Virus record (IMG/VR): IMGVR_UViG_3300031760_004705
Coordinates: 24,424 to 88,423 of that record
Strand: one strand, 5' to 3'
Source of the DNA: a virus
Taxonomy: Duplodnaviria > Caudoviricetes
DNA length: 64,000 nt
This document shows positions 751 to 50,321 of the stretch, piece by piece. Both the position numbers and the translations under genes were made by a program. Position 1 is the first letter of the stretch, and each line of letters starts with the position of its first letter. The notes below the pieces were generated by a model. That model had not been told where the DNA came from. It worked only from the letters and a program-made list of their open reading frames with translations, and made no database searches.

Positions 751-2301
751 TCAAGGATTATTCTTAGAATTAAGAGACTTTTGTAATCCTTTAACTGAAT
801 TAGGACCAAAATAACCATCAGCACCATCTGGGCCAACACTAAACTTATGTTTAATTAAAAATTCTTGAATCTTCTTAGAAGTATCTGGTCCCCAATATCC
901 ATCTACATCTGCACCGACTTTCTTTTGAATTGCTTTCACTAAAGCAGATCCAGTGCGTTCTCATGTAACAGATACAATACCTTTAAAATATTCTTGATTA
1001 CCTTTAAGCTGACCAGAGATAACACCATCTACAGGTGTTCCTAAAGATTTCTGTCAAGCTTTGATTGTTTCATATCCACCAATACCATCTACTGCAAGTT
1101 TAGTAGAGGTTGTAGTCTTATTAGTGGTGGTAGAACTAGAAGTAGTTGTTTTAGCTCCGCCCGTAGTAGCACCTTGATAACGAAGAATGCAATCCCATCC
1201 ATGACTATAGGTATAAATATTCTTTACATTAGTCTCATTACCAGACTGGTCACCGGTTTGGCCACCAGTTGCGCGACCACGTTCATCAATAGATGCCTGA
1301 GCAATTTTAGCGTTTCAACCATTTCCAGAAATAACTGCGGCAGTATGGTAATTGTCATTTAATAGAATATCACCGGGCTGTGCTTTAGATAAATCTGCGG
1401 GAATACGTTTCCATCCTCGAGCTGTAAGATTACTAGACATATTACCAGTATAACTTGCGCTTCCAGTATCAAATCCAGCCTTCTTTAAAGCTCAAATTAC
1501 AAGGGAAGAACAATCACATTCTCCACCATCATAAATATTTTGACGCTGATATTGGTCATATCCAAGAGATCATACAGCACATGCAGTATACATTCATTCA
1601 CAAAACTTAGTAAGTTTATCTGAATCTTTAACTCTCTGTTCATTCTTATCATTCTCTAATTTATTTTGTTTAGCTTTAATACGAGAAGGATAATTAATAA
1701 CACATCAATTAAAATCTGTACAACCAGATACGTCATCATAATATAAAGCACCATCAGTTAAACGTTTAGTGCCTTGTTGTCACATACCAATGTCACCCGC
1801 GGCAGTTGGTCAATCACGCTGCCATCAAGCAATTCAATTAGCATATTCATCTAATTCATCTTTGTTAACATTATTTAATCAAGCAGAACCCTGTATATAG
1901 AGTCCCGCATAATATCCAGCTTTAATAAGAGTATCGCAGAAAGTTTTAATTATTGCAGTTAGTGTGCTCTTGGATAATTTAAATTGACGAGGATCTTCTA
2001 CATCCATATAGATGGGCATATCAAAATCATGTCCTTTAAGTAATCCAATAATATGCTCTGCATCTTTCTTTGCTTCAGCTACAGAGGTGCATACAGTATA
2101 ATAATACGCTCCAACATGTAGACCTGCGGCTTTAGCTTTTTTGTAATTAGTTTCGTATTGAGAATCGGTATAACGACCTAATTTAGTTTCATTACCACCA
2201 CATTTAACAATTACGCCTCATAGATTATGTTTTTTTATCCATAAGGCGTAATTTACATTACCGTCTCAATGAGAAACATCAATAACGGCTTTACGTTCCA
2301 T
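745..2301 (-). CDS. Endolysin, 518 aa: GH25 muramidase + NlpC/P60-like (Amidase_5-type) Cys-His peptidase + peptidoglycan-binding repeats
   Basis: Table-4 translation: AVIDVSHWDG...GLHVGAYYY...PIYMDVED...GMWQ...DFNW (GH25); LGYDQ...ECDCSSLVIWALKKAGF...YHTAAV (Cys/His dyad); VDGIGG..TIKAWQ and VDGYWGPDT..IQ repeats. AGGAG RBS. 15 TGA and 5 TGG codons. Confidence 0.92.
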
Positions 2302-2303
2302 TT

Positions 2304-2660
2304 TTACTCCTTTGTGAAATGTTTTCCTTGAAGGAAGTCATCTGTATCATCTACAGAATCGCCATATTGAATTTCTGGAATAGCCATTGCATCTGCATAT
2401 GTTGCAGGAAGGCCAATCATATTCTTAAATGCTTCGTACATACCAGTAGAAGCAAGACCACTAATCATACCAGTAACGATAGTTGGTAAGTCTAAAGTTC
2501 CAAAACTTCAAACAGCAGCTGCAACTCCAAGAATTGCAGAAATAATAGGAATAAAACTATTTAAAATTTTATTGTGTAAAGTATGTAAGGTATATCCAAT
2601 ACCTAAGCACGCAATTAAAATAATTGGTGATATATAATTAGTTATAGTTGAGAGGTCCAT
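2304..2660 (-). CDS. Holin, 118 aa (1 TGA)
   Basis: Three hydrophobic segments, IVTGMISGLASTGLYEAFK motif typical of Gram-positive phage holins, acidic C-tail. Lies immediately upstream of the endolysin. Confidence 0.8.
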
Positions 2661-2663
2661 AAA

Positions 2664-2861
2664 CTACTCCTCTTCTGGTAAATCTTCTTCCTCTTCTACG
2701 GGAGTGATATATCCTTCTTCTTCAAGCTCTAGAAGCATCTGTGCACGCTGAGTGTCAGAAAGTTTAGGATAAGAATCAATTACATCAACAGCATTTTCAC
2801 CATGCTTGATTCGAAGAATAACAGCTTTTTTAATAATCTTATAAGCAACAGCAGTTACCAT
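2664..2861 (-). CDS. Small hypothetical protein (65 aa), XkdX-like position before the lysis genes
   Basis: ORF track, RBS, tight packing between neighbours. Function inferred from position only. Confidence 0.6.
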   Translation of the reverse strand: MVTAVAYKIIKKAVILRIKHGENAVDVIDSYPKLSDTQRAQMLLELEEEGYITPVEEEEDLPEEE

Positions 2862-2881
2862 AATTATTACCTACCTTTCAT

Positions 2882-3391
2882 TTATAATGGAATTGATACA
2901 GTTGGATTTTGTAATATGTAAGCAGAAGCTCTAAAATAATAATTACTAGAAGTACTAGTCATAGGCTCTGATGTCTGTCAGTATAAATTAGGCGTTAATG
3001 GAGTTGAATCAGTATATGCAGTTCCTCCATGTAAATATGCTCTATCTGTTGTTTTACCTGTTGATATATCTATTTCAAAAATAGGAGCTACTATATCTGT
3101 ACCAGTAGCTATCGTGACTGTTTGATTTGCAGTTGTTGGTTGGCTAATCTTTAATATAATAAAAAACATACCTAAACAATTTCATCTTGCAAAACGAATT
3201 AAAGAAGGAGTAATACCAGAAGAAAAATTAAAAAATGTATTTGTTATACCAGTATCACTATTTTCATTAAAAAGAACAAAATCATTTTTATCTTGTATGT
3301 TATTTAATTTATCTCGAGCAATAGCATCACATATATCATACGTAGTATCCCCTACTTGAATTTGAGAAATTTTATTTGTATTTTCAGCCAT
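2882..3391 (-). CDS. Accessory tail/fibre protein with shared N-terminal tag (169 aa, 2 TGA)
   Basis: Joins ORFs 3182..3400 and 2978..3169 through TGA. Starts MAENTNKISQIQVGDTTYDICD. Confidence 0.7.
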
Positions 3392-3516
3392 TTTATTCAA
3401 TCCTTCCTATGTATGGCGGCATCGTTCCATATATATTTAACATAGGCATTATTTTCTCCTTTTCTTTCTTTAGTTTTAATCTAAATCAAATTCTTTATTC
3501 TTAATGTTGAAATAAA

Positions 3517-4077
3517 TTAAATTTCTTCTTCGGCTCCACCTAAGAGATCGGCCATAACAAGTAGAATATCATCAAGAGTTTCTTGATTTTCTGCAACTCT
3601 ATCTTCAATATCACTACCAGCGAGTTCTGCTACGACTTCAAATAAATCATTAGTGTCAGATTCTATTGTATTAAGTCGTTCAGGACCTTTTGCTAAAAAG
3701 ACATTATCAGCTAATTCTTTTTCTGTATAAAGAATATAGCGAAGAATAATCTCTTCTTCTTCATATGCTTCAACTTTAGGTTGATCAATTACATATCGAA
3801 TAGAAGCACTTTTTATTTGAATAGAAGGATCTTCTTTACTAGGGAGATATTTGAAAGCACCCGTTGTTTCATTGATTATTTTAATGCGAGGATCATTTTC
3901 TTTTAAGAAAAGAGTTTCTCCTGTATTTAATTCAAGATAACTAACAAAATAATGACCTTTTTCAGGAACCATTTCATGATAATGAATAATTTTTTCTTTT
4001 TCTAAGTGACCCAAATTTAAATCGGGATCAAAAATTTCATTTCCTTCATTATCTAAAATTCGATATTGATTATCCAT
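3517..4077 (-). CDS. Putative tail fibre assembly/chaperone protein (186 aa), paralog of 5678..6205
   Basis: YRILDNEGNEIFDPDLNLGHL...QETLDDILLVMADLLGG aligns with the 5678..6205 product. Confidence 0.6.
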   Translation of the reverse strand: MDNQYRILDNEGNEIFDPDLNLGHLEKEKIIHYHEMVPEKGHYFVSYLELNTGETLFLKENDPRIKIINETTGAFKYLPSKEDPSIQIKSASIRYVIDQPKVEAYEEEEIILRYILYTEKELADNVFLAKGPERLNTIESDTNDLFEVVAELAGSDIEDRVAENQETLDDILLVMADLLGGAEEEI

Positions 4078-4110
4078 TGGAACTATTAACTCCTCTCTTT
4101 TGCTTTAATA

Positions 4111-4659
4111 TTAATCATCAGAAATATCAACTACTCTAGCAGTTGTCTTTCATAAAAGCATTCTAGCTCTTATTTGAAATGAATTAGGAGTTATTGTAGT
4201 AGATCTTAAATTATAAAAAGATAACACACATCCTCCACCAGTGGATCCTGATTCTGATGCATTGGCCATTTCTGTTAATACTAAATCTGTAGGTGTACCT
4301 TCAATACCTACCACTCCTAATTGATGATATCCCTTTTTTAAATATTCGTCTTGAATATTTTTTGTATGATCCGAACTTAAAGTTCTTAAAGTAATACTGC
4401 TTGTTGTTTTACTAGGAAAATGAGTAGAACTAGAATAATTACAAACTCTAACTCATTTAAAAAGAGTCTGATTTACGGTACCTGTAAGATTGCCTATAGT
4501 AGCAGCATTAGTAGTTGCTGTATCAAGAGCTTCTGTTGCTTTGTCAAAAGTATCTGATATTGCCTCATTTAATTGTACCATACTTGCACGAGCTCCTGCA
4601 TCTTGTATATCGTAGGTTGTATTACCCACTTTAATTTGTGAAATCGTTGGATTAGCCAT
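4111..4659 (-). CDS. Accessory tail/fibre protein with shared N-terminal tag (182 aa)
   Basis: MANPTISQIKVGNTTYDIQD..., reads through TGA at 4453 to TAA at 4111. Confidence 0.7.
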
Positions 4660-4662
4660 AAA

Positions 4663-5658
4663 TTAATAACCTCCTTCAATTAATATTAATTTTGTAGTGC
4701 CAGAAACGATACTACCATCATTAGTTGAATTAATTACTAATTTATAACTTGAAATATCTGGAGTATCAACTGTAGTATCAAGATTAGTTATACTATTATT
4801 ATTTTTATCATATCTATATAATTTTTCAATACGATCAATTACATGATTATGAGGAATGGTAAAATTAAATCTATGTAAATCAGCATGTTTAAAATATAAT
4901 ACATGCGCACTTGAAGTATCTTCTAAATAATTTTCTAAATCACTACTATAAGCAATAATACTGCCTTCTCTTGGAGGATTATCTCCTATAATTAGTTGAT
5001 CTTTTAAATAGGATACTTCAATGATTTGTATAGGATCTAATCTAGAATCTTCATTACCATCAATTAAATAATCTGAATTTTTAACTTGATTTTGTAAAAA
5101 TTCTAGTCTAGATGGACACCCTGTTTGAATTGCATTACTATATTGTGCCACGTCTTCTGTTGCATCAAGTAAATTTTTAAGATAAGTTTTTCAAAAAGAT
5201 TCTACTAATCTTGCAACAGAACTTATTTTAGATGTGGTAATTATTTGATTCCAATTATATTGATATCACTTTGATCAAGCAAGATCTTTATTTATTGCAT
5301 AAATTATATAAGTAACTCCTGCATCATTATATTCTAATGTATGTCATATTTGAATAACAAGATTATTATTTAATGTTATATATGTAGTATATTCTTCAAA
5401 ATTTGAACTTAATTTATAACCAGTATAATCTTCTACATGAGTTCCACCCATATCTAGCAAATATTCTCCCCTATCTTCCTCTACGGGAATTATATTACTA
5501 TTTATAGTATACATAGGATTATTATTTTCATCAACAAGTAAATCTAAATCTAATAAAGCATCATTATTTTCACTTGGAGACGTAATTCCAAACCAAGTAG
5601 GAATATGTAATCTTGGGAGGGGTAAATCCCCTAATTGTTCATATGGAGTTGCTGTCAT
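4663..5658 (-). CDS. Hypothetical virion-associated protein (331 aa, 4 TGA)
   Basis: ORFs 5344..5673 and 4663..5151 are in frame and linked by TGA-containing sequence (IQI-W-HTLE...LA-W-SK-W-YQ...SF-W-KTYL). Confidence 0.7.
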
Positions 5659-32680: not shown

Positions 32681-35600
32681 TTAGTCTGTTGAAGTGGTTG
32701 ATGAAGGTATAGAAACAGTAACTTTATTGTTTGTAACGCTAAATTCTTTACTGTATGCATCAACTGTATGAGTATGACCATGAGCTGCATAAGTTGTACT
32801 ACCAATTTTATTTTTAATTCAAGTGCTTCAATCGGTCTTAGTATCGCCAGTAATCAATTTTTTAACTCAATCGCCTCATCCAGTCGTAGTGTCGCCTTTA
32901 ACCGCGAGTGCTACTTCTCCTGCAAATCCATTATCACCTCAAGAAATATCACTTTTACTTATTGTAAAAGTTTGATCTGATATTGCGCTAAAAACTGGTC
33001 GTTCATTTGTTAATGTTATGTTTGTTCCGTGAAGAGTAAATGTACCGTTATATTTACTAATTGAAAAAGAATTAGTAGTACCAGAAGCTGTATTTGTTAC
33101 AGCAGTTCCATCTCCATGAAGTGTAGCACCCTTTATTGCGCCATCAGCAGTAATATCGCCACCAATACCGCCCGCTTTAGTTACAGTAATATTACCTTTA
33201 TTTGTAGCAATATCACCCTCTTTAGTAGTAATATTACCCTTATTCGTAGTAATATTACCTTTTTTAGTAACAATATTACCTTCTTTAGTAGTAATATTAC
33301 CTTTTCTAACTAATATCTGTTTACCTACAGTTAAAGTACCGCCAAAAATAACATTCTTGTTAACAGACAAACCAACACTTGGATTTTTAAGTAATCCTCC
33401 TTGAACACTTAAACCATTTGAATTATATTGAGGGGCTGTTACATAAAAATTTTCTCTGTATTGTCTTGTATCTCCAGCAGTATAATGTTCTGGATAAATA
33501 CCAATTCTTGCAGTCGCCGTACGCACTTCAAATACTGGATAAGAACTTGCTGCTTTTTTAGGATTATTATTTTTAAAATCTGCGTTATTACTTAAAGCTG
33601 ATGCTCAGCCATTATTAGAAGAATTTAAAATTAATTCTGCAGATGTTCCTGAATTTCCAGTAATGGAAGGGCCAGCTTTTAATAAAATTTGTGGATTAGA
33701 TTCTGTATAAAGATTTCCTTCTCCAAGACTAGAAACATTAACTTCAAAATTATCTTGCATTTTTAATAAAATATTAGATTCTGCATTTAATCCAATATTA
33801 GACTGTGTCATAGACAAGCCATTATAATTATTAGTATCTATAAGAAAACCAGCAATTAATGATTGACCTTCAAGTTTATAACCCTCATCTGTAAAAAATC
33901 CAAAACGACGATTAACTTTTTCATCTTCATTAATTGTTTGAAGTTGTACATCAAAATCTGTAAATGTTTTTGCTTGTGAAATAATAGATATTCCACCACC
34001 AGTAGAATTAAATAATTGTATACCATTAGAATCGCCTATTAATTCAATTATATCATCTTCGTATCCAATACTAGTATTATTGTCATCAAAAAGTTCTGTA
34101 CGATTTGTAACTATTTTTCCATAATACTTACCCGCATAAAAAGAATAATCTTTTTGAGATATAAAATTTTCTGTCGATACATATTTTACAGATTCTATTG
34201 GTTCAATACTACCTGTTATTTGAACATATTGTCTTTTTTCTGAATCTTTATATATATATCCAGGATTTAATTCTGAATATACTAAATCATTTTTATTTAT
34301 ATAATAAAAAACACCATTCATACCACGAACAACATTATATTCTTTTAATGAATCATCATATTTTTTCATTGATGAACCAGTTCAAAAATATAATGATGAG
34401 GTATTTAAATTATTAGCTACAAATGTATCAATAAGTTCGTTATTATCAACTCTAACAACACTTCTATATTTAGCATCAGGGTTATTGTTACTATCTTTTT
34501 CAATTGCCGTTATCTTTATAAATTTCTCCTTAATATTATCATAAAAATATTGGTCTATTGCAATTGATTTTGTCGTAATAACATAACTTTCTTCTCCAGT
34601 ATCGCTTATTTCTAAATCATATGTTGGATCGTTTTCTGCAAGATATATACTATTATTTATTTTATAATATTTTATATTTTGATTAGACACTAAACAATAG
34701 TAATTAGTATTATTATTATTATTATTTATTTGATAATAAAATGGTATCGTAGTAGCTTTTTTATAATCTGTGCTATTAATTTTTACATATAAATCATTTT
34801 TATCTCAAGAATCTTTTTCAGCATAAACAGTTGTAGAATTTCCATTTTCATCAGTACCTACTGTAATAGATATATATATTTTTGGATTTGATTGCATATT
34901 AACAGTTTTATTATTAGTAGTATAAATAACAATATTTTGTCCTGCTTTTTGCTCTAATCCTATGTTAGTTTTAAAATTACCAGCAGACATTAAAGATGAT
35001 TCATAATTATCGTCTTTAAAAAGATTAAAATGAGCTTTCTTTACTTGTATTTGTAGTCCATCTTTATTTTCAGAGTAATCATTATCTGCTCCTAATAATA
35101 AATATGTATCAGTTTTTTTAGAATTTTTAGGATCTTCTGCTGAACTAAAAGTTGGATTAGATGCTAATTTAATATTTTTTCCATATATACCAATAGGTCG
35201 AGTATATTCATTATTATTACCTAAACCACCTGTTATAAATAAAGTAGAATCTCCTCCACTATTTGGATTTATTCCATCATTAGAAACGAATAACTGCCCA
35301 ATAGTATTAGATCCTATTTTTATTTTTAATCCTGTATGAGTTGGAAAATCCATTGGAATAGGAGGTGTTACATTTAAATTTTTTGCAAAGTCGTCGAAAG
35401 CTCTAAAAGTATTTACTGAAAATTGAGTCGTATAAACTGAATCTTCATTTTCACCAATATTTACAATACTACTAACAGTATTGGCAACAAATTCTCCTTT
35501 ACCATTAATACCAGCTAAATAAGTTCTAGAACCTTCTTCATAAATCGTTCTAGTTGTAATTTCTCCATTTGAATTACGACTAGATTGAGTTCAATTAGTA

Positions 35601-38600
35601 CCGTTATGTCTAAAAATTGTAAATAAAGTAGGAGTCTTAGGATCTAGTTGAATTTCTAATGAATCTTCTGGACGTAAATATATACCTAAATCATCCGGAG
35701 CTATATCTGTTTCTAATAATTGCCGACCTTTAATAGAAATATAGGGATCTGTTCCAGAATGCAATAAAATTCCAGAATCTTTATAATCTATATCTTTTTC
35801 ATGATGACCGCTATAAGGATCTGAACCAATTTGAGTTATTTTTCCTGTTCTAATTTCTGGAACATAATCATTAGAATAACGAGGTCCAATCTCACCACTC
35901 TGAGTATAATAAAGACTTCGATGCCCTAATCTTCATCCACCTATTTTACTTACTCCACCTGGTCTTAATTCTATTCTACCTTCATTGTAATCATCATTTT
36001 TTAATCCTATATAATTACCTTTTTCATCTGTTTGAATAGAATTGCCATTAGGTAATCCAAAATCTGCATTGCCAGTTTTAGCATCTAAGAAAATAGATTG
36101 GATACCATAAGAATATCCAAATAAACCTATTTGATTTTCTTCAGAAGAACTGCCAGTATAAGTATTAGTTTTACCCATTAAAATACCGGTAAAACGATTA
36201 TTAGAATCTTTTTCTCCCGCACCTACTTGCGGAGCAAGTATTGCACCACGTTCATCATCAATACTAATACTATTACCATCTCATGCATTCACAGAATCTA
36301 AACCAAAAGTATTTAATGTCATATTAATAGGAGCATATACAGTTGCATATAATTTTATTTCTTCATCTGAATCAGGAATATAAATTTTTGCTTCTATTCG
36401 ATTATTTGTTACAGATCCATCATATACATCATTAGGTAAAACATAGATCATAGCTTCATTTGTATCATCATTTAAAATTTGAATATTAGCATCAATAATC
36501 GCTTCTTCATATGGAGAATAAACAGATTTAAAATAAGCTTCAGGAGTTAATGCAACATTTGCTTTTGTATAAATTGTCTTGTAAAAATAATCTTGTTCTC
36601 CTATTTCAGATTTTTCAAGAGCTACATATCCATATTCATTATCTTGTTCATTAACAATAACATATTTATATAAATTATATAGTTCATTCTCTTTTTCTGA
36701 CTCTGTAGTTAATTGATAACGCGATTCTTCTCAAATTGGTAAAGGATAATATTTTTCAATAAGTTGAGATTCACCTTGTTCATTTTCTACTTGTGTAGTA
36801 ATTTTATAAAAATAATTTTTATAAACAGCTTGAGAATCTCATCATTCATTCACATTTTTAGAAAATCATCAACATTCGTTTAAAGGTTTATCTTCACGTT
36901 CTTTATCTCTAATATCATTTTCTGTAAGGTCCGTTCTATGAGGAAGTTCTTCTTCAATAAATTTATTAATAGCTTCTTTTTGTAAAATCCGTAATCTTTC
37001 TTCTTTGAATTTAGCTAATAATAATTCATTTTGAGATTGAACCTTTGCTATATAATTGTCATATAGTCCAGTTCCTCCAGTTATTACTTTATTACCTTCT
37101 TCATCAAGTATTTCATTACCTTGTTCATCAACAGCTAAAGTACAATATAACTTTAAATTTTCATCTTTTTCTTTTTCATATACTTGTCTACGCTGCTCTT
37201 CTTCTTTTTCTAATGTACTTTTTCTTTGAGATATTAATTTAGAAAAAGTATTCTTAGTATTTTTTTCTAATCCAAGAGTAAAACTAGGTTCTAATTCAAA
37301 ACATTCTTGAATAATATTAGAATTATTTGATTTATTTACATCTAATCCTCCACGAGCTTCCCAATAGATGATAGAATTTTCAGGAAGGTTCGTTAATTTT
37401 AACCCTTGATTATGATTAAAAATAGGATTGCGGCCGTCCGCATTATAAACAACATCGTTTAAATATGTTTTTTTATCAATTGCAATACGTTGCATTGGTA
37501 ATAATTCATTGACTAAAGTTGAATTATTTTCATATTCAATAATAGGTAAACTAAAGAAACTGTAGTAAGTTTGTTCTGATTCTTCTTCTGTAATAGCATC
37601 TTTATTTTTTATTAAAATTTCTGATCTAATGTTCTGAAGTAATAAACTTCTAGTATCATTATGATAATTAGGATTTCATTTAATTTCATTAGCAGTTATT
37701 TCAAAATATTTGCCCAGTTCATTTCCTCTTGAGTTTCCTGCTAAAATTCATCTTGGGTATCCCGAGGCAAAATTTACTGAATCAATTTCTTCACCTTTTT
37801 GATAAACATGAGCTTTTAATACAGAATTTTTATTTTCAGCATTTGTAACAATTGTTTGTTTATTTTTTAGTACATCAATATCACCATCTGAATCTGCAAC
37901 ATTAAACATTGCTTGAGTTTCAGTTGTATTTTCATCTATTGGAACATTTTTTTGTACATATAATGTTAGTGGTTGTTCATGAAGAACAAAATATTTATCA
38001 TTTCCATTATAACTAATTTTAGAAATCATATCTGTACCATTAGTACCATTACCACCTATTTTATTAAAATAAAAATTAGTATCAGCATAAAGATCTATAT
38101 CGTTAAAATTAGCATGGCAAGTAATTTGATTATTTTGCGCATCAGGATTATATAATTTTTCAATATCAAAAGTGCAATCTGGTCCTTTTAATAATTGCTC
38201 TTGTTGTGTTGCGGGATTTAATACTAGTCCATCTGGAGGAATAATTAAAGAATTTTCTAAATTAAAAATTCATTCAAAATTAATATTTGAACTAGAAACA
38301 GAAAAAGATAATCCGGTTGGGCCTAAAATTTTTGCATGTAAAGGTTTAATTTCTAAAGGATCTTTTGTTTTAGTAAGAGTTGGAGCATTTCCATATTCAT
38401 CATATTGAAATACCTGATCTCCATTTTCAATTATAATTCTATAATTTGAAGAAGCTCCCATTTTTAAATTTGTAATTTCAATAGAATCTGTACCGATATC
38501 ATAATAATTAGCAGTAGTTTCTGAAATAAAGATTTTTTGAACTGTACACTCAACAGTAAAACCTGAGCTAGATAAAGAAACAGGGTATTGAATTCTTGTT

Positions 38601-40735
38601 GCTCTATTAGGAATCTTTGTTTCAACTAATTCATTTGTAGTTCTATCCAAATATCACATTTTAATTTTAGAAACAATATTATCTTTTAAAATATTAGAAG
38701 TGTTTTTTGAAAAAGCATCTTCTAAAAATAAAACAGATGAATTAGCACTATCTGCTATGCTTCATTGATATTTATATAATGGAGTTTCTATACTATCATT
38801 ATATCCATATTCTTGATAATTGTCTAAGTTTTCATTATCTTCAACAGAAAGAGAGTTCTCTTGAATTAAACAACTAATTGTAGGGCTTCCTTCTGAAAAA
38901 GTAAATTCAGTGCCTAAATCAGATTCTAATTTTATTTTTGTTGAAACTGCATTATTATAAACAGTAAATGTTGTTGATAAAGTAACTGTTTCATCAGAAG
39001 TTTTATATAAAGCTATACATTTATATAAATTTTTGTATGCTCAATTTTCATTACCGGTAGTTTGAAAAATAAATCTACTAGTATTTTTTAATCGTTTCCA
39101 TCCTATTCCCGCATAATGATAATAATCTGGATGACTAGCATTAATTACTTGTGAACTTTGTTTTAATCAAATATATTCAACATTTGCATTAGAAGTTAAT
39201 TCTTCTATTTGATTTCTATAAACGTGAGCATTAAATGTAACTTTATCATCTGCAGATAAACTAGATAAAACTCCAGTACTATTCTCTGCACATTCAACCT
39301 TTAAAGAAAAATTGTTAGATTCCGCATCAGATTCTTTCAATAAAAATAATTGAATGTTTTGACAAAATATATCATATCCAGTTCCTTCATCTTTAGGAGC
39401 GTCACTAGGTGGCCATAATTGTTCTTGTTCTGCATCTTGATTAAATCCATCTTTAAAAAATAAAATATTTTTTATATATTTAAAACGAGAAAATTCTAAT
39501 TTTTGAGATGGAATTATATATTGACTATTTCAATTCTTAAATGCTAAAGGATTACCCATCATTGAATCTGAAGTTAAATAAATAATTTCATCAATATCTG
39601 ATAAATCTCCAATAGAGGTAGATTTTCAATTATTATAATAAGTTTTAATTTCTTCTAAGTTTGCAGGTAATTTTTTTAAATCAGCTAATAAATTTAAATA
39701 TGCAGCAACTAGATTGTCTGTTGCAATAGATTGAGAAGAAGAATTATTAACACAGAAAGTCTGATAAATTGTTTGAATATATTGAGAATAACAATCAAAT
39801 AATCCTAATCCATCTTGTTGTCAATAGGAAACAGATTCATCATTAGCATCACTACTATTAAAAAATAACTGTAATCTTTGATCTCATTCTTTTAAAGATA
39901 TATTATCTATATCAGTTTCACTTATTCCAACTCATCCTGTTGATGGAATTGTAGTATTTGTTTTTACATCAATAGTAAAAGCAGCATTTTCTTTTGTAGA
40001 AGTAATTTTTTTAGCATTTCCAATAATAATTTTACCAAGATTATCTAAAACTTCTCCTTGAGTTTGACCATATCCTGCATTTGGATTACTAAAAGTTAAA
40101 GTTAATGCTAATCCATATCTACCTCCGGCAGATCGTTGCTGAATAATATCTAAATTTGTGCGGAAATCTGCTCTAAATAATATATTTGTAGCTTCTTCTT
40201 TATAAATATTAAATAAATCTTGAGATATGTCAAGATGATTATTAGAATTATCATCTACATTATATAAGAAGCGAGCTCTATGTAAAATAGAATTACTATC
40301 TTCATCTTCTTCATCTAAACTATGATAAGAACGTAGTCCAAATATGGAATCTTCATCAATTAAATTTGGACCTAATTTTACATATTTATTAATTTCTGAT
40401 GATACAGAAGTACTTTCAGCTGTCATAGAAGACATTGAACTTGCTTTTCCAATAATAAATTTTTCTTTAGAAAAATCACTTTGTGGGACTGTAACATAAA
40501 CAGCTGTATTTCGCGCATAAGTTTCAGAAGAATCTCTTGCAGTTGCTACGAAAGTACCACCTTCATATTTTACTTGATATAAAGGATAACCACCAGACAT
40601 TCCAATATTTTTATCTATAATTGCGGTAATTGTTTTATCTAATTTTAAACCGTTTATGCGCCGTTGGACAACTGTGTCAATAGCTTCCAACACGGAACGT
40701 TGATAGTTCTGTTGCGCTCCAATATCGTTACCCAT
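32681..40735 (-). CDS. Giant central tail-tip/spike or host-specificity protein (about 2684 aa)
   Basis: Nine track ORFs from 39932..40735 to 32939..33526 share one frame. The inter-fragment stretches I translated contained only TGA; not every gap was checked. Directly follows the TMP. C-terminal heptad repeats and HGHTH. Confidence 0.7.
33185..33305 (-). repeat. Coding 21-nt tandem repeat (7-aa unit xKGNIxT)
   Basis: VRKGNITTKEGNIVTKKGNITTNKGNITTKEGDIATNKGNITVTK. Confidence 0.85.
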
Positions 40736-40859: not shown

Positions 40860-43800
40860 CTAGATAGTACGATTAGCATATTGATATGCTTTATCAGAAA
40901 GATTTAATAAAGCTGCACGAATATCTTCTGCATCAGTAGCATTAGGGAAGGATGCTTGAATTTCAACTCGTTGTTCCGTTACTGGATTATAAGACGAATT
41001 AAAATTGTTTTTAAACATTCTATTCATAGTAGATAATCCTGATATTGTATTTTGAGTCATATCTCGCATTAATGTAATTGCCGCAAGAATATTTTCTGTA
41101 TCAGTAGCATTTAACACTAATTCTTTTTGATGTAATACAGCTAATTTACCATTTTTACTTAAATTAGTTTCTTCGCCACCTCATTGTCCAGTATATCCAC
41201 CTGTATCATAAGTAATGGCTTGTCTTAACATATCTTCATTTAAGTGCCATCTCTCTGTTTTTTTAGTATCGCTCTTATTTGCTAAACCAGTTCCAGTTTC
41301 TTTAGTAGCTTCTTTACTCGCTTCATAAAAACCAATATTATATTTTGCTAATTTACTCGTATCTCCATATCCTTTGGTATGATGTTCATTAACATGAGAA
41401 ATTTTAACTTGAGTATCTTTACTTAATCTAAAACCGTTATTTCCATTAGCGTCATATTGATCACCATCTCTATGATATGAAACCCACGTTCCTTTTTTAA
41501 GAGTTACTACTTGACCCACTTCAAATTTTTTGCTACCATTCATTAAATCTATGCTATCTTGATAATAACTTTCTTTTGCATTTTTATCTTTAATTGTTTC
41601 ATTAGCTTTATTTAAAGCTTTTCCTAAAAGAGATGTTGTTTGTTGACTAGCTTCTAATTGTTCTCTATATTGTTTTAATTTATCTAAAGCTTGTTGTAAT
41701 TCACTGTTATCTGCACCTAATGCTGCAAAAAGATTGTTTGTAGCTGCAGCCAAATCTTTTGTTGCATTTGCTGCTTCGCCCATTGAATCTGTTATATTAT
41801 CTGCACCAGAACCAATTTTTGTTAATGCTCCGCCAGGTCCAACCATTTTATCTTCTAAATCTTCTACTTGATTTCCCATTTCTAAATCTGCTTTAGTTAC
41901 AGCTTCAACTATATTTGGTAAAATTTGATCTCCAATTAAATTAGCCATATCCATTCAATCTTGACCAGTCTTATCTTTAACTTCACCATTTTTATCATAT
42001 AGAGCATCTAACATACCAAGTGCAGCTGTTGTAGTATCCTCACTACCATTTTTAACTAGTCAATTAAGAACATCGTACATACCAGCAGAAGTATCAGCAA
42101 AATCTTCAGCAAGAGCTTTAAAAGTATCATTATATTCAGATTCAAGATTAGCTAAAGCTATACCACGTGCAGTCGCATCATCTTTATATTTATTTCAAAT
42201 AGCCGCTCGTTTTTCAACATAATTTTGTAAAAGACTAATTGCTCGATCATTATTGGCAACAGTTTCTTGTTTTGTCATTTCATATGCATCATATTCAGAA
42301 TCAGCTAAATCTTGTTGAGCTTCTTTAACATCTCCCTGATCTGCAGTATAAACATAACGATAATTACCCTGAGTATCACGACGTAATTGCATTTTATTTT
42401 TATTACGCTGAGCATCTTCAAGAGCCATCTGTTTTTGAAGAATTTCTAATTTAGCATTTGCAAGTTTAACATCATATTCTGTAACAGTATTTTGTTTTTG
42501 TAATAAATCAAGTTGTTCTTGCATTTGTTGACGAATTCGATTTTGAGTTTGCGCAGATGAACCTTGAGCATTATCCAAAAGATCAAGATATTTACTTCTT
42601 AGCTTATCAATTTCATAAGCTTTTTCAACATCATCTTTATATCTATCCATATAATCTTTTTGAAGTTCTCAGTTGTCAGTAAGCTCATCAATATCATTTG
42701 AACCAAAAAGATCTTTATAAATATGTTGAGAACTAGCTTCAACAGCATTTTCAAATTTTTCAACTCAAAGTTCTGCAAGGTCTTGCGCAGCATCTAACAT
42801 AGCATCTTCCGCGTCGTCCATGCGGTCTTGCATTTCTTCAATTAATTTTTTATCGCCAACTTTTAATGCTTCTTCATAAGCTTTTTGTCAATATTCATAT
42901 GCGGCAGTCATTTGATTTAATTGATTCTGCATAATATCGCCTTGACGAGAATAGAATTGATCTAATTGATCATAACTATCTTCACCGTAATATAAAGTAT
43001 AAGTATCACTTATACGTTCCATTTTTTCAGATAATCTATCAAATTGATTTAACTGACGTTCAATTGCTTCACCTGCATCATTATAAATATCTAAAATATT
43101 ATCACGAGTCTCTTGAACAAGCTGACGATAATTTTTAAATTCATCTAATAACAAATCATATATATCTTTAAAATTTTCAAATAAACTTGCTTCATCCATA
43201 CCAAAAAGATTTGCCGCAGCTTTTGGATTATCCATTCACTCTTGTAATTGAGTTAAATCTTGTGTAAGAATGCCTAAATATCCATTTTGTAATCCATCTT
43301 CTGAAATATTAGCTTTACGATTTTCAAAAAATTTGATAGCTCCTTCAAGAGCATTTCTTGTATCTGGATCTTTTTCAGTTTTTAAAGCTTCTTGTTTTTG
43401 ATTAATTAAATTGTCATAAAAAGTAGTAGCGTCTTTTGCTGTAATATTATAAATATCATCTAATTGACTCATATTTTCAATTAAATCTCCATAAGGAGTA
43501 TCATCAATTGAAAAACTATTCATAAAAGAATCAGAGTCAAAATCTCTAAACAATTTCTTTAATTCCGCTCCTGATTCTAATGCTTCTTTTAATCCATCTC
43601 GTGCTTCAGTATAAAGTTTAAATTGTTCAATTCTAAGATCTTGAATATTAAAAGTTGCGTCTTGAATTTCATTATTTATCTTTTTTAATTCAGCTTCAAT
43701 TTCATCTGAACGTTTTCCACCTTCAAGAAGACTCTTACTTAATTTATCAAATTTATCTATATATTCACCAATGTTTTTTGCTAATTCTTCTTTGCCAGCT

Positions 43801-46800
43801 TTTGCTGCAGCTTTTTGTTTATCTACCATTGCATTATAAGTTTTATCAACTGCAGCTGAAACTTCTTCATAATTTGTAATAATACCATCTGTGTTACGTT
43901 TAAAATCTGGAATCTTCATATCGACGCCAGCTTTTTTAGCAACTCTTTCAGCAGCTTTATCATCCTTTTTTATTTGATTTCGAACATCTCGTCTTTCTTG
44001 ATTCTTTAAAATATCTCTTTTTTCTTTTAAAATTCTTAATTCTTTTTCAAGTAATCTAATTTGTTTATTTTGATTACCACGAGCTTTGTCACCAATTAAT
44101 TTATCTTGCTTATCTTGTATTCCTTTTAAAACTTCATCTGTTTTTTCTAAAAGACTATCTACTTTTTCATAATAATCTTTTTCATGTTCTCTCTTATCTT
44201 TAGTAGAGATTTCTTTCTTTTTTCCTCCGCCATTTTTTTTGTTTCCGCCACCTTTATTGTGAGCAAGAATTTGATTGCGGCCAACATAGTAATTGTGATT
44301 TCCAGAAACTTCAAAATTATAAACAGTTTGTTGTTCTATATTAATTTCAATTTTTCAAATTACATGCCAAGTACCATTGGCAAATAAAACTCAATCTCCA
44401 ACTTTAAGATTTTCAGCTGCAATCCATTGCGGAACACCAGTTAAAATATTTTTAGTGATAAAAAATCTGTGAATACCTGTTACTCTTAATTGTTCATTTT
44501 GAATGTATAAAGTATAAATAGGTTCTTTTGTATCATGAATCATAGTTTGAACTACAGAACTATATTCATTATTTCCGGTTTGTTCATTATAAGAAAGAAC
44601 AATATCATTAGGTTGAATTGTTTCAATAGCTTTAAATCCAAGAGAAGTAGAAACTTGAGTTCCAGCTACAAAACAAGATTTCCCACCTTTATTATGCGCA
44701 AGAATTTGATTGCGGCCGACATAATAATTATGATTATGAGATACCTCAAAATTATATACTGTATGATGTTCAATATTAACATCAATTTTGTGAATAACAT
44801 GTCAACTACCATCAGCAAACATTACTCAATTACCAACTTTAAGATCTGCTGCATGTACTCATTGAGGAATTCCGCAAGTGATTTTATTTGTTACTAAGAA
44901 ACGGTGAACACCAGTAACTCTTAATTGTTCATCTTTAATATGAAGAGTATATATAGATTCAGTGGTATCATGAATCATAGTTTGAATAACTTCACTATAT
45001 TCATTAACTTTAATTCTTTCATTATAAGAAAGGACTATATCACCTTTTTGAATTTCTTCAATAGGTTTAAATCCAGTTAAAGTAGTAACTAAAGTGCCTG
45101 CTATAAAGCAAGATTTTCCTTTACTTCCAGTACCATTATTAGTATTATTTCCAGTATAAGAAGGAAAATTATTTCCTCCAACAGTATTTCCAGAAGGAGA
45201 AGTAGGCATTTTATTTAAACTAGTAATTTTTGGTACAGCTGTATTTATAGGAATATCCATATCAGGAACTTCAATTCCTCCAATTTTTGCTCCTAAAACT
45301 TCAATAGGAATTGAAGTTCCAGGAATACTAATAAAATTACCAGGAGGTCCAGGTTGCATTTCTATTTGTGGATCTGTCTCAACAGAATTTAACATCGCAT
45401 TTAAATCTTGAGCAGTTAGTGTTCCTTTTGCTAATAAATCATTGAGTGTAGCTATAGCTTGTTCATCATGGATTGTAGTAGTTGCTTCGACTTCCATGTG
45501 AGCTCATTCATCAAGTTTTGTATTTAAATAATCTAAATCTTCTTTTGCTAAATCCGCATTAAGATTTAATAATATTTCTTGTGCCGCAGCTGCTCTTAAA
45601 TCATCTAAAGAAGAAATATCTCCATTCGCAAGAGCCTCAATTTCTTCTAAATGTTCTTGAACAAAATCTGCTGATATATATTGTTGTTCAACATTTAAAA
45701 TATCACCTAAACTACTTTGAACCTCTCCTAATGCTTCTGCATATTCTAAAGTTCCTCTTTTAGAGTCATCTTTTAAAATTTCACCATTCTTTTTTCAGCC
45801 TTCTGATAAAGAATCCAATCCTTTTTGAGTTTGCATTACCATATCAGCTAAATCATCAACACTATCTTTATATCCTTCTGCGGCTTTCTTAGCTTTATCA
45901 GTTCTTTTTACATTTTCTTGTAATTCTTTAGATTGTTTCTTTGTTAATCCAGTAACTTTTTCACCGGCTTTTGCTTGTTCAATTTGTTTATCAGTATATT
46001 CTTCTAAACTTTTTGCAGCCTGTTCATATTCTTCATTTAATTCTTTTTGTGTATTTTTTACAATGTCTGAATCTTGAGCCATAGATCTCATTGCATTTTG
46101 AGTAGAATCAGAAATTTTATATTTTTCTGATAATAAATTTTCTCTTTGAGTAGTATCTGCACTGTCACTATAATCTTCTCTCATTACATTGTCTTTTGCA
46201 GATTGCATTAATGTACCAATAATTTGATCAATAGGCTGAGATCAATCAATACCTTCATATAAGGCTATTTTTTCATCCTCTGTTAATTCTGAATTTTCTA
46301 CAGCTGATATAGCAGTATCTACCATAGCTTGAGTATAATAATCTTGTCCTGCAGATGGCAAAGAAACTTGTTGATTTGAAGAATTTATTCCTTTAATATT
46401 ATAATCTTTAAAAAATTGATCATTATTTTCGCCCATTAGTTTTTCTTCAGATAAGGCTTTAAAATGACCTTGTGCTAAAACAACTTTTTGAGCATTATCT
46501 TCCACAGATTTTAAAGCTAAAGCATATTCTTCTGCTTTTGATATTGATTCATTAAAATATGCTGCCGTATTACTATCTTGTTTAAAAACACTTAATAATG
46601 CTTCGGCATCAGTTCCTGCTTCTTTCAATTTTTCTTTAAAAGAATCTAACTGTATTCCATTATTAAATTTAGTCATATAAGTTTCATCTGCAGTTTTTAT
46701 ATCATCTAAAGATAAAAATTCACTAAAATTTTGTTTAGCTTTTTCTAATTGATTATTTAAATCAATATAAAATTGATTATTAGGATCGCTTTGTAGCTGT

Positions 46801-49800
46801 CCTTTTACTGTTTCTTGTTTTTCTTTTAATAAATCTAAAGCTTTATGTGCTTTCCCAATAGCTTGTTCAACAGAGTCAGCTTCTTTTGGCATTAATTGAG
46901 CTTCTGTCAATCAATCTCTAATTTGAGCTGTGGATTCTGTTACTCCAGATCCAGTTAACATTTGAGATGTTACAGAAAAAACAGAATCACGATAAGCTTT
47001 TTGATAATCTTGCTGTGCAGATCCATTAAATAATAATTCTCCATTTAATGACTTTCCATATTCACCTTGGAGTAACATATCTGCATTATCAATAGCTTTT
47101 TGAGCAGCTTCTTGTTCAGCATTATGAACGGCTTCAGCTAAAAGATCAAATCGACCTGATGCAGCAAAAGCCTTTGCTCCTATTATGTCTAAACTTTCCC
47201 CTAAATCATTGCTGGTATCAATAAATTCTTGAGAGATTTCTCCAGTTTCTTGATAAACTTTATATAAACGTTCTCAATTTTTTGCAGTAGTAGAAACATT
47301 TTCGCTATTTGTCTTAGCTTCTTCTAAAGCTTCTTTTTCTGTAGCCATAGCATTTTGAACTTTTTGCTGATATGCTCCTCATGCGGCAGATGCAATAGCC
47401 AATCCTGCAGCTATAGCTGCAAAAGCTAAACTACCTATTAGACTTAGTTGAGCTTGTCTTAAATCCGCAGTAGCCGCAGCTGCATCTTTTTGCGCTTTAT
47501 TCATCTCTTCTGTAGCTTGAGCAACTTCATGCATTCCATTTGAAGCTTTTTTAGCGAATCCTGCTGCTCCTCGTTGCGTATTATGTAAAGTTGTTGAAAG
47601 CGCTTTAAAACCACTTTGAGCTTTACTATTTCCTTTATCTATTTTTTCTTGAGCTTGAGCTATTTCATTCTGAGCACTTGCTATAGCATCTTTTGCTTGT
47701 TGAATATTTGAAGTGCTATCTTTAAAAGAAGGTATCTTTAATATTTCAGTTATTTTTTTTCAACTAGTATATAACATTGGTAAAGATGCTGTTAAATTGG
47801 CTATTGTTTGTTGTATCTTTTCTCCAGTTGAAATATCTGTTTTTTGTCAAAGACTTCCTAAATTTTGAAAAGATTGTCAAGCAAAACTTAATTGACCAAT
47901 ATTTGCTATCATATCGACAACATCTTTAATATTAAGTTGTTTTTCAGCGGCCTTTAAATAGCTTGCTCCAAGTTTATTACTACCTTCAGCAGCTCCTTCT
48001 GTATTTTTAGCTTTAAAAGCCAATTCTTCTAATTTTTTAATAAAATTTTCAATTTCTTGAGTACTTAATTCTTTATTAGATAATTTATCTAAAAATTCAA
48101 TAACACGACCAGTTTCGCCTTCAAACTGTTTAATTGTTGTAGTAATTTCTTCTATAGAAGCATTACCTAAATCAAAAGACTCACCCAAGTCTTTAAAAAC
48201 ATTATTTAATCTATTATATAAACTAGGCTCCATATAGTTCTTTAAAACTTGTAAAGATTCAGACATCATTTGAAGAGAATTTGAAAAATCTTTGTCTTCA
48301 TCTTCTGATTTATTTAATTCTGACTGATATTCTTGTAATCCCTGATTAAATTTTAAAAGTTCTTCTTTTGTTGTCTGAATTGCATCTTTAGTATCTCCTA
48401 ATCCACCTTTTAATTTTTCTATTGCTACTGCAGCATTTATTCCACCAGCATCGTCTAAAAATGGACTAGCATATTTATCGTTAAAAACAGATCCTAAAAC
48501 GGTTCCAACACTTTCTAATTGAGTTTTTAATTCTCCTTGCGCTTGAGTTGCTGCATTAGCATTTTGAACCATTTCTTTAAGAATTTGATTGGCTTGCTCT
48601 CATTGTTCAGAACTTAAATTCGGAGCTAATTCATTAATACGTTGAGCATAATTAATTATAGATTGAGTATTTTGATTACTTTCATCTGGATTAGCAACTT
48701 TTAATTGCTCTAATAAAGCACCTCTATTTTGAGAGTTTTCAATACGTTGTTGCTGTACCGCTTTATTCAGTGCAGCATTATTAATTTGTTCTGCAATATT
48801 GTTACTAAATAAACGAGTAAAAGCCGAAGCCAATCCCAATATAATAGTGGGACCACCACCTACAGATTTAAATAAAGTATCTACTGCATCTGCCAATTTG
48901 GTTAAAGCATCAATAAGAGGATAAACCATATCTGTAGTAAATACATCATTAAATAATCCTTCAAGTGTTGTATTTAATTTTTGAGTACGTCCAGCTAAAG
49001 ACTCTGCATACTCTTGATTCATTTGATCAAGAGTACCAGTAGCTGCACTTCCAGTCGCTCCAACATATTCTTCATACATATCACGATTATCCATCAATGC
49101 TACAAAACGGTTAACTTGATATTTACCTGCTAAAGCTTGTGCAGATGCAATTTTTGCAGTATCATCAAGATCAGCTCATACATCCATGAGATCTTCCATA
49201 ATCTCATCCATTGTACGAATATTACCAAATTGATCTAATACTTTAACTCCAATTGAATCTAATTTTTCAGTTACTTTTCCTAAATCAATTCCATCTTCGT
49301 CTTTTCCTCCACCAGAAATATCAGAAAAACGAGCATAAAGAGTTTTAAGACCATTACCAATTTGTTCAGGTGCTTCTCGCGTTACAGATTCAATAGTAGC
49401 AATTTGTGCTGCTAATGTTTCGCCACTAACGCCGACGGCATTTGCCATTGAAGCAGCTCGTTGTGATGCTTTTGCAAGTTCACTTACATCAGCCGCAGAT
49501 ACATTAGCAATTAATGCTCAGTTATCCATTTGCTGAGTTAATTCTTCAATACTATCTCCAAGGCCATAAGCATTCATATATGCTGTAATTTGATCTGAAG
49601 TAGTAGCAGTATCTTGCTGAGATGCGTTTGCTAATTTTGCAGACAGGGTGGCTAGCTCTTGTGATTGACTAAGATCATAACCTTGTTGTGCAAATACTAA
49701 TGATGCATTAGTCATACCTGTAGTAGACATACTTAATGCTTTTGCGGCTTCATTCGCAGATTTTGCATATTCATTCATTGAATCACGATTATAATCAGTA

Positions 49801-50321
49801 ACAAGCATAATTTGTGTCAATGAATCATCAAGTTCTTTTACATAATCTACAGAATTATGAATTGCATTCATAAATTGACTAAAGAAACTTGAAACAAGTC
49901 CTCATCTAAATGTATTACTAAAAGTAGTAAATAATTTATCTATTTGAGAATTAGATCTTTGAATACCAGTATCTAATTGTCCTAATTGTCCAATTAAATT
50001 ATTAAATGCAATTTGACCTTCAGATCCTGCTTGAGTAAAAGCATCTTTTAATCCTTGCATCGTAACGCCAGATTCTTTTAACTCAGTTTTAAAAGTTGAT
50101 AAATCCAACACTCCAAGAGAAGGATTAAATGCTTTTGTTAAAGCATCTCCTAAACGTTGAATTTGTTCTCGAGCTTCTGAAAAACTTCCATCTAAAAGTT
50201 TTTCATTTCCCATTTTTTGTAAAGTTAATTCAACTTGTTGTAGTTCAGTTTTTAATTTTTGTAATCCAGAACTATCTAATTTAGTTGAAATATTATATTC
50301 AATAGTATTGGAATATTTCAA
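40860..50321 (-). CDS. Tail tape measure protein (3153 aa, TTG start) containing two tandem Hint domains
   Basis: Thirteen track ORFs share one frame, separated by TGA. N-terminal TMP core (VKELDDSLTQIMLVT...FAQQG...KLANAS...PEQIGNGLKTLYARF), long helical body, C-terminal YDTGGYTGQWG...KLAVLHQKELVLNATDT. Confidence 0.92.
44256..44675 (-). other. Hint domain 2 (140 aa), tandem paralog of Hint 1 within the TMP
   Basis: C1-FVAGTQV; RVTGIHRF; VYNFEV..NHNYYV; ILAHN followed by Lys. 98 of 140 residues identical to Hint 1 by hand alignment. Confidence 0.92.
44691..45110 (-). other. Hint domain 1 (140 aa; pretoxin-HINT/BIL-like mini-intein fold) within the TMP
   Basis: C1-FIAGTLV; block B RVTGVHRF; block F VYNFEV..NHNYYV; terminal ILAHN followed by Lys. 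Confidence 0.92.

Follow-up and report, generated by a model that had tools for sequence, protein, structure and literature searches.

Tandem Bacterial Intein-Like Hint Domains at a Glycine-Rich Hinge of a Giant Phage Tape Measure Protein: Candidates for Optional Self-Excision

Introduction

Why does a phage carry two intein-like domains in the middle of a tape measure protein (TMP), when neither is followed by the nucleophile of canonical inteins? This question is raised by a stretch of DNA of 64,000 nucleotides (nt), hereafter the window, which is part of an 88.4-kb IMG/VR viral record (IMGVR_UViG_3300031760_004705, positions 24,424 to 88,423; Caudoviricetes; estimated completeness 59%) and which has on its minus strand a TMP gene of 3153 amino acids (aa) (40860-50321) with two Hint domains of 140 aa in tandem. 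Hint domains that end in His-Asn (HN) and are without a nucleophile at the following residue (+1) are known as type-A bacterial intein-like (BIL) domains (Amitai 2003, Dassa 2004 and Aranko 2013, as summarized in PMC4031507), and they can splice via the freed amino group of the C-terminal flank, which attacks the N-terminal thioester (PMC4031507). Although type-A BILs have been on record since 2003, little is understood of their roles in nature, and only a few of them have been tested, in foreign contexts. No description of BIL or Hint domains in TMPs was found in the literature searched. The protein family to which the TMP in the window belongs is a natural experiment in this respect, that is, hundreds of giant TMPs share one hinge, in which 0, 1, 2 or 3 intact BILs are found, each before Lys. 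It makes testable whether nucleophile-free or lysine-based splicing is the physiological outcome, and what role tandem copies have. This article discusses the identity of the two domains, their distribution and history and the reactions that they may catalyze.

Two Type-A BIL Domains in One Tape Measure Protein

The first domain in the reading direction of the TMP, Hint1, occupies aa 1738-1877 (44691-45110, minus strand, as are all features described below), with Cys1 at 45108-45110, the block-B motif TGVH at 44904-44915 and the terminal His-Asn at 44691-44696. The second, Hint2, occupies aa 1883-2022 (44256-44675), with Cys1 at 44673-44675, TGIH at 44469-44480 and His-Asn at 44256-44261. Between them lies only the linker KGGKS (44676-44690), which provides both Lys+1 of Hint1 (44688-44690) and Ser-1 of Hint2 (44676-44678). 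The upstream flank NNGTGSKGKS (45111-45140) ends with Ser at -1, and the downstream flank KGGGNKKNGGGKKK (44214-44255) begins with Lys+1 of Hint2 (44253-44255). The two copies are identical at 98 of 140 positions (70%) without a gap (BLASTP E 6e-77), their nucleotide identity is 74.8%, and Tandem Repeats Finder (TRF) gives 2.0 copies of a 435-nt period at 44248-45116 (76% matches, score 1018). Each copy begins with Cys1 (TGC/TGT), has the block-B T-G-V/I-H, ends in ...ILAHN, with the terminal His-Asn encoded by CAT/CAC AAT, and is followed by Lys-Gly-Gly; there is no room for an endonuclease in either. The first-pass annotation, which was made from the letters of this DNA alone, had described two 140-aa Hint domains in a 3153-aa TMP, the 435-nt spacing, the 70% identity and the KGGKS linker, all of which were re-derived by translation, BLASTP and TRF, and the synonymous differences which it had noticed at catalytic codons (TGC/TGT, CAT/CAC) are present.

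The class to which it had assigned the domains, BIL-A/pretoxin-HINT, was borne out by profile searches, by the lack of a +1 nucleophile and by the lack of an endonuclease. The Pfam family PT-HINT (PF07591) matches with 63.6 and 66.9 bits, the cut-off being 27.7, the Intein_splicing profile is likewise over its cut-off, and a genome-wide search with PT-HINT gave exactly two matches, namely Hint1 and Hint2. When the PDB was searched with the sequence of Hint2, the best match was 2LWY, the "bacterial intein-like domain" of Clostridium thermocellum (E 1.3e-16), followed by the gp41-1 mini-intein and the Tetrahymena BUBL BIL2 domain. The AlphaFold2 (AF2) model of the pair with its flanks (predicted local distance difference test, pLDDT, 81) consists of two all-beta Hint folds, for which Foldseek again found 2LWY as the best match (template-modelling score, TM, 0.90; root-mean-square deviation 1.9 A), then BUBL BIL2, mini-inteins and Hedgehog. 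Judged from their sequences, both domains have every property by which a type-A BIL is recognized, that is, a fold of mini-intein size, Cys1, TxxH, the terminal HN and no Cys, Ser or Thr at +1.

Two other assignments were considered and rejected. A canonical class-1 intein is not in keeping with Lys at +1, the missing endonuclease, the variable poly-Gly/Ser/Lys hinge or a Hint that is more conserved than its host, and a pretoxin-HINT in the functional sense is not in keeping with the sequence that follows, which has no toxin domain, the downstream 1131 aa being the C-terminal part of the TMP. An assembly artefact, which the first-pass annotation had also called unlikely, is very unlikely, since independent assemblies (P0003, P0005, L007 and L011) have two copies in the same layout.

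An Optional Occupant of a Universal Hinge

The Hint pair separates the TMP into an N-module (aa 1-1737, 45111-50321) and a C-module (aa 2023-3153, 1131 aa, 40863-44255). A search with TMP residues 1500-2300 gave 213 giant TMPs of about 2000-5500 aa. Among the best 120 of these, one Hint was found in 80, two in 31 and three in 5, always in tandem and with linkers down to KG, and five Hint-less TMPs came to light (the four remaining entries, with the window's own duplicate entry excluded, and one more). All 157 Hint copies in the 116 Hint-bearing TMPs keep Cys1, HN and Lys+1, and most have Gly+2, while the flanks vary at -1 and from +3 onward. Because this search was biased by the Hint itself, it was repeated with the Hint-free C-module (residues 2350-3153), which gave 1824 homologues, and in about 70 of the best 120 of them the Hint is absent. 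A poly-Gly/Ser/Lys hinge is present in all 190 distinct homologous giant TMPs that were examined. It stands at the same place in 75 of 75 Hint-less TMPs, where it is followed by the same conserved motif, and in 31 of these 75 it contains (G/S)KGG, the sequence expected from excision of the Hint and re-joining of the flanks. The hinge is thus universal in the family and the Hint often absent; therefore, the Hint is an optional occupant of the hinge.

Very close relatives differ in the same way. The C-modules of P0033 (one Hint) and P0128 (no Hint) are 98% identical, and the high identity begins exactly at the +1 Lys. Between the window and locus L006, the DNA is 96-99% identical across more than 25 kb, but L006 has one Hint and the window two, Hint2 being the copy that L006 is without. 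Copy number shifts on a very short timescale. Because of the Hint-less close homologues and of L006 with its single Hint, the Hint is dispensable, and so is the second copy. From FastTree trees of 135 TMPs, the presence or absence of the Hint is estimated to have changed at least 9 times (C-module tree) or at least 14 times (N-module tree), and the copy number at least 15 or 20 times. The first-pass annotation had suggested looking for alleles with 0, 1 or 2 Hints at this linker, and alleles with 0, 1, 2 and 3 exist among the relatives. Its idea that the phage has a "built-in" maturation of the TMP is weakened by the same comparison, namely by the Hint-less C-module homologues, including TMPs with a C-module 98% identical to that of a Hint-bearing TMP, and by the single Hint of L006. 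The Hint looks like an optional self-removing cassette, not a built-in cleavage device.

Viral contigs were also scanned; an alignment of the two copies gave one locus, its patterns being too specific, and an alignment of 12 TMPs gave 17 loci. An even larger member of the family is found on a 181-kb contig (L015:2-13219), where an open frame of at least 4406 aa in the standard code has one Hint at aa 3334-3461 between Gly runs, then Lys. A second, very divergent Hint-like domain lies off the hinge, near the C-terminus of the TMP, in P0078 (aa 3117-3263) and P0081 (aa 3132-3279); it is followed by Met in P0078, and in P0081 the match ends before the end of the domain, so that the following residue is uncertain.

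Selection and Recombination at the Hinge

The ratio of nonsynonymous to synonymous substitution rates (dN/dS) between Hint1 and Hint2 is 0.25, with a dS of 0.86, and its median over 76 pairs of 13 Hint copies from 10 genomes is 0.31. The selection on both copies that the first-pass annotation had supposed is thus seen as purifying selection. No part of the TMP is as conserved as the Hint, whose median p-distance is 0.35, compared with 0.50 (N-module) and 0.65 (C-module). Hint distances track those of the N-module (rho 0.74) and the C-module (rho 0.71), and in the Hint tree the tandem copies are position-orthologous within clades. The Hint has thus been resident for long under purifying selection, which would fit a domain that is useful and a domain that must excise, or else the TMP is ruined, alike.

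How did the pair arise? The first-pass annotation had called it a tandem duplication. However, both copies have closer relatives elsewhere than in their neighbor, that is, Hint1 is 90% identical to the single Hint of P0004/L006, and Hint2 is nearest to the lone Hint of P0031, at 80%. The Hint tree places Hint1 in a supported clade together with the second copies of P0003 and P0005; Hint2 groups outside that clade with the first copies of these two TMPs, so that the lineage order of the tandem Hints in the window is reversed against P0003 and P0005. A recent duplication in place was rejected on the grounds that each copy is 80-90% identical to single Hints of other phages and 70% identical to its neighbor. 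Because the copies are closer to foreign single Hints and because the lineage order is reversed, the array probably came about when two alleles recombined unequally, for which the nearly identical 3' coding block of the Hints (...NHNYYVGRNQILAHNKGG) is an obvious substrate.

The modules on the two sides of the hinge recombine as well. In three close pairs of TMPs, the C-modules are 97-99% identical and the N-modules 48-53%. The C-module in the window, which includes the conserved C-terminal end of the TMP, is 99% identical to that of P0004/L006, and from nt 60 on, the single Hint of L006 has 97-100% identity with Hint1. In the N-module, the middle part (window 45051-48951, TMP nt about 1371-5270) is replaced in comparison with the near-identical genome L006 and cannot be aligned, the right junction lying in the first 60 nt or so of the Hint; the replaced part is a hot spot of mosaicism, with the conserved Hint as a boundary. 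Because of the swapped N-modules beside near-identical C-modules, and of the comparison with L006, the hinge with its Hint is a recombination joint. As a joint for the exchange of TMP halves between near-identical phages, it bears on the diversification of tail genes in uncultivated, stop-codon-recoded phages.

Relatives outside Tape Measure Proteins

A phmmer search of the full library with Hint2 as the query gave 14,228 representative proteins at E<=1e-3, of which 3,279 remained at E<=1e-10. Among the non-TMP top matches, tandem arrays of 2-7 copies are found in 55 of 137 proteins, with linkers down to one residue. The complete copies in these matches begin with Cys in 158 of 158 cases and end with HN in 156 of 158, and at +1 they have Lys in 64 and Arg in 17 (81 together), the rest being Ala, Val, Thr, Gln, Ser, Gly and others. 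From these counts, it is common in this BIL subfamily for copies to stand in tandem and to be followed by a basic residue. Consequently, the tandem Hints that had at first been thought to be undescribed have an arrangement that is ordinary for their kind. Lys+1, on the evidence of the alignments, is no universal requirement in the subfamily, and in the TMP clade it varies no more than the catalytic residues do. The hosts of close non-TMP Hints include subtilase-PKD proteins, surface proteins with Listeria-Bacteroides repeats, a Scabin-like/pertussis-S1 toxin and a pilin-like protein.

In curated phage records, full-domain matches were only about 30-34% identical and were found in unannotated non-TMP proteins of Ruminococcus phages and in one unannotated fecal phage record; partial matches were to ribonucleotide-reductase inteins. 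More distant phage Hints lie in Gly runs and have Gly at +1. Three proteins of 1483-1574 aa (L016:1132-5853, L018:9914-14362 and L019:5547-9995) have a Hint near the N-terminus (at about 45 residues), flanked by Gly runs (GGGGG|CF...VHN|GGGG) and with Gly+1; the host protein is a different one, and the logic of the Gly hinge is the same.

Proposed Self-Excision and Its Alternatives

What, then, do the two domains do? The reading that we put forward is that they are active type-A BIL Hints which remove themselves and probably re-join their flanks, and we hold the balance for and against it to be even. The identity, conservation, optionality and mosaicism of the domains are established above, and catalytic activity is predicted, as is re-ligation over plain cleavage. 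The setting would be the poly-Gly/Ser/Lys hinge between an N-module of about 1700 aa and a C-module of about 1100 aa in a large giant-TMP family of uncultivated phages. Cys1 would first undergo an N-to-S acyl shift, giving a thioester at Ser/Gly -1; the terminal Asn would then cyclize and break the HN|K bond; and the freed amine of the invariant Lys+1 would attack the thioester, by which the flanks would be re-joined without a nucleophilic side chain, as in type-A BILs. Separate N- and C-fragments would arise as by-products of hydrolysis. The mature TMP would be essentially the uninterrupted protein for which the genes of Hint-less relatives code, and the cassette, optional at 0-3 copies and mostly inherited vertically, would be gained, lost and multiplied via recombination, for which the hinge and the conserved 3' end of the Hint would be the sites. 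The Hint would be kept intact because an unexcised globular domain of 15 kDa would spoil a protein that threads the tail tube.

Self-excision with re-joining is favored for four reasons, that is, because close relatives work with a continuous hinge, because Hint-less hinges resemble spliced products, because both scissile-bond chemistries are kept in every copy and because no member is seen with the modules as two genes. As to the last, none of 46 shorter matches is a split N/C gene pair; the eight longest have an internal Met as their start, in one case within the Hint, and for this reason look like truncated gene calls, and the rest are short fragments. Several points weigh against self-excision with re-joining. 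The steric argument, by which a folded Hint would not fit into the lumen of the tail tube, comes from general knowledge of tail architecture. The counts of gain and loss come from FastTree trees of mosaic proteins and are approximate. Position-orthologous tandem copies and a Hint conserved above its host could equally reflect a selected function. Furthermore, the type-A BIL that has been tested gives mostly cleavage and less spliced product (PMC4031507).

The last point leads to programmed self-cleavage, the model of the first-pass annotation, in which the Hints sever the TMP to give fragments of about 1737 aa (N-terminal) and about 1131 aa (C-terminal), each functional in tail assembly or DNA ejection, and in which the second Hint makes cleavage fuller or tunes its timing. 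The arithmetic of the fragment sizes is correct, and besides the dominance of cleavage products, this model has in its favor that the hinge is a module boundary whose two sides recombine independently, as in the three close pairs described above, and that the Hint has been kept over long periods with every catalytic residue intact. In addition, several TMPs, such as lambda gpH and T5 pb2, are matured by proteolysis. However, cleavage as a program would be at odds with the close relatives that work with a continuous Hint-less hinge, with the absence of the second copy from a genome 96-99% identical, and with the lack of separate genes for the modules among the shorter matches. Moreover, Cys1 and the terminal Asn are both kept in every copy, though one scissile bond would do for cleavage, and a ruler severed at a flexible Gly hinge would leave the N-fragment unheld in register. 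The claim of two fragments is weakened by the lack of a split gene pair and by the (G/S)-K-G-G of Hint-less hinges, which fits re-ligation at least equally well, and programmed cleavage seems to us unlikely, though it is the first of the alternatives to be taken into account.

In a second alternative, splicing would depend on lysine, that is, the epsilon-amine of Lys+1 would attack the Cys1 thioester before Asn cyclization, and the flanks would be joined by an isopeptide bond. It would explain why Lys+1, encoded by both AAA and AAG, is found in 157 of 157 TMP copies while -1 and +3 onward vary, and it would be in keeping with the basic residue (Lys or Arg) that follows 81 of 158 copies in the closest non-TMP relatives. 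BUBL BIL2, the second-best structural match, is reported to form a bond of this kind between a lysine epsilon-amino group and a C-terminus (PMC8616854). Outside the TMP clade, however, +1 is often Ala, Val, Thr, Gln or Gly, and because of this variation Lys is not a general requirement of the Hint fold; in the TMPs, it could be mere inheritance from a Lys in the ancestral Gly hinge. In the 2004 work of Dassa, the C. thermocellum BIL is said to splice with Ala at +1, which also counts against a need for lysine. We consider this alternative improbable; if true, it would be a fourth, lysine-based route of protein splicing, in natural use in a structural protein of a phage and occurring two or three times over in tandem.

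A conjugation reaction, in which the thioester would be attacked by an external nucleophile (for instance a second TMP chain, another tail protein or a component of the cell envelope) and the N-module crosslinked or anchored, is very improbable. The Hint thioester of Hedgehog is resolved by conjugation, and that of BUBL is used likewise (PMC8616854); the flanks in the window are also rich in Lys. On the other hand, many relatives have almost pure Gly flanks in which only +1 is Lys, the cassette is optional, and an acceptor is indicated by none of the present data. A catalytically dead structural insert that stays in the mature TMP, or an artefact of duplication, can hardly be entertained, given the intact catalytic motifs in all copies, the dN/dS of about 0.3, the 25% of nucleotides at which the copies differ and the same architecture in independent assemblies.

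Comparison with Known Systems

The nearest known system is the C. thermocellum BIL (2LWY), which has the same Hint fold of about 135-140 aa with Cys1, TxxH, Asn instead of Asp in the block-F "VYNF" and the terminal HN, and which likewise is without a +1 nucleophile and an endonuclease; it differs in having Ala at +1, where the TMP Hints have an invariant Lys, mostly followed by Gly. Like the TMP Hints, type-A BILs in general lie in a variable, low-complexity part of a non-enzymatic protein. In the present case, however, the host is a phage TMP, a poly-Gly hinge is common to all members, the number of copies is 0-3 and activity is predicted. The pretoxin-HINT family (PF07591) is the top Pfam family of the TMP Hint, whose close relatives occur in toxin-type and surface proteins, but no toxin domain lies downstream of the TMP Hint.

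Canonical inteins are known to use this host, since TMPs are listed among intein hosts in actinobacteriophages (bioRxiv 10.1101/2025.01.02.630785). Canonical class-1 mini-inteins share with the TMP Hints the fold, Cys1/TxxH/HN and the in-frame insertion in the TMP, and their "empty" alleles resemble the spliced product; unlike them, the TMP Hints are without a +1 nucleophile or a homing endonuclease, lie in a flexible Gly hinge and not at a conserved functional site, occur in tandem and are more conserved than the host. BUBL BIL2 of Tetrahymena (6Y75/6TMM; Chiarini 2021, per PMC8616854) is similar in structure (TM about 0.8) and sequence (E 3e-4), and its thioester is resolved by a lysine amine; however, it is eukaryotic and has ubiquitin-like flanks, its acceptor Lys lies on another domain or protein and not at +1, and its identity to the TMP Hint is about 22%. 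Compact Hints that work in Gly-rich flanks without Cys, Ser or Thr at +1 would be useful in protein engineering if ligation is efficient.

The TMPs lambda gpH, which becomes H*, and T5 pb2 undergo proteolytic maturation, so that, as is proposed here, a TMP is processed after translation; their cuts, however, are near the C-terminus, no Hint is embedded in them, and the maturation is not optional among close relatives.

The Tape Measure Gene and Its Context

The TMP gene (40860-50321) is read with TGA as Trp from a TTG start to a TAA stop. Under translation table 4 it is one open reading frame (ORF) of 3153 aa with 26 in-frame TGA codons; under table 11, the minus strand at about 44200-45200 is broken by TGA only, and a TGA in one Hint copy pairs with TGG (Trp) in the other. 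An identical 3153-aa TMP is found in the public protein collection (P0002). The PhageMin_Tail domain (PF10145, Pfam E 1.2e-24; aa 188-399, 49125-49760) marks a conserved N-terminal part, which in the TMP alignment is the best-conserved part besides the Hint. Given its great length, its mostly helical prediction, the PF10145 match and its place in a virion gene block, the protein is a phage TMP. In a PHROG scan of ten neighboring genes, the matches were to "virion structural protein" families and little else.

For the 1131 aa downstream of the Hints, no Pfam family was found at E<=1, and the stretch is homologous to TMP C-termini in 1824 proteins. An "SH3-like insert" had been claimed for this part, which could not be confirmed; there is no Pfam match, and the low-confidence fold has a small beta-rich stretch that is not assigned to a fold. 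In the AF2 model of the last 279 aa (pLDDT 55), this stretch lies at about aa 2935-3000, and a variable, predicted beta-rich stretch with local pLDDT 70-87 (41325-41534, aa about 2930-2999) breaks the helical C-terminal part. A wide structural search with the last 279 aa gave generic helical matches only.

Directly downstream of the TMP lies an ORF of 2684 aa (32681-40735, minus strand, 28 TGA codons) without a PHROG match, and the next two giant ORFs beyond it (1218 and 1316 aa) match PHROGs of unknown function only. ARAGORN found no tRNA gene in the 64-kb window, so no TGA suppressor is encoded there, despite TGA = Trp throughout. The Hint-bearing giant-TMP family spans three codes. Most members (window, L006-L010, L013 and L014) have in-frame TGA, with 21-27 TGA codons; L011 (IMGVR_UViG_3300021254_000022) has 47 in-frame TAG codons and no other stops; and L012 and L015 have no recoding. 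The same Hint-bearing TMP family occurs under three codes; therefore, one tail-gene family extends across differently recoded lineages.

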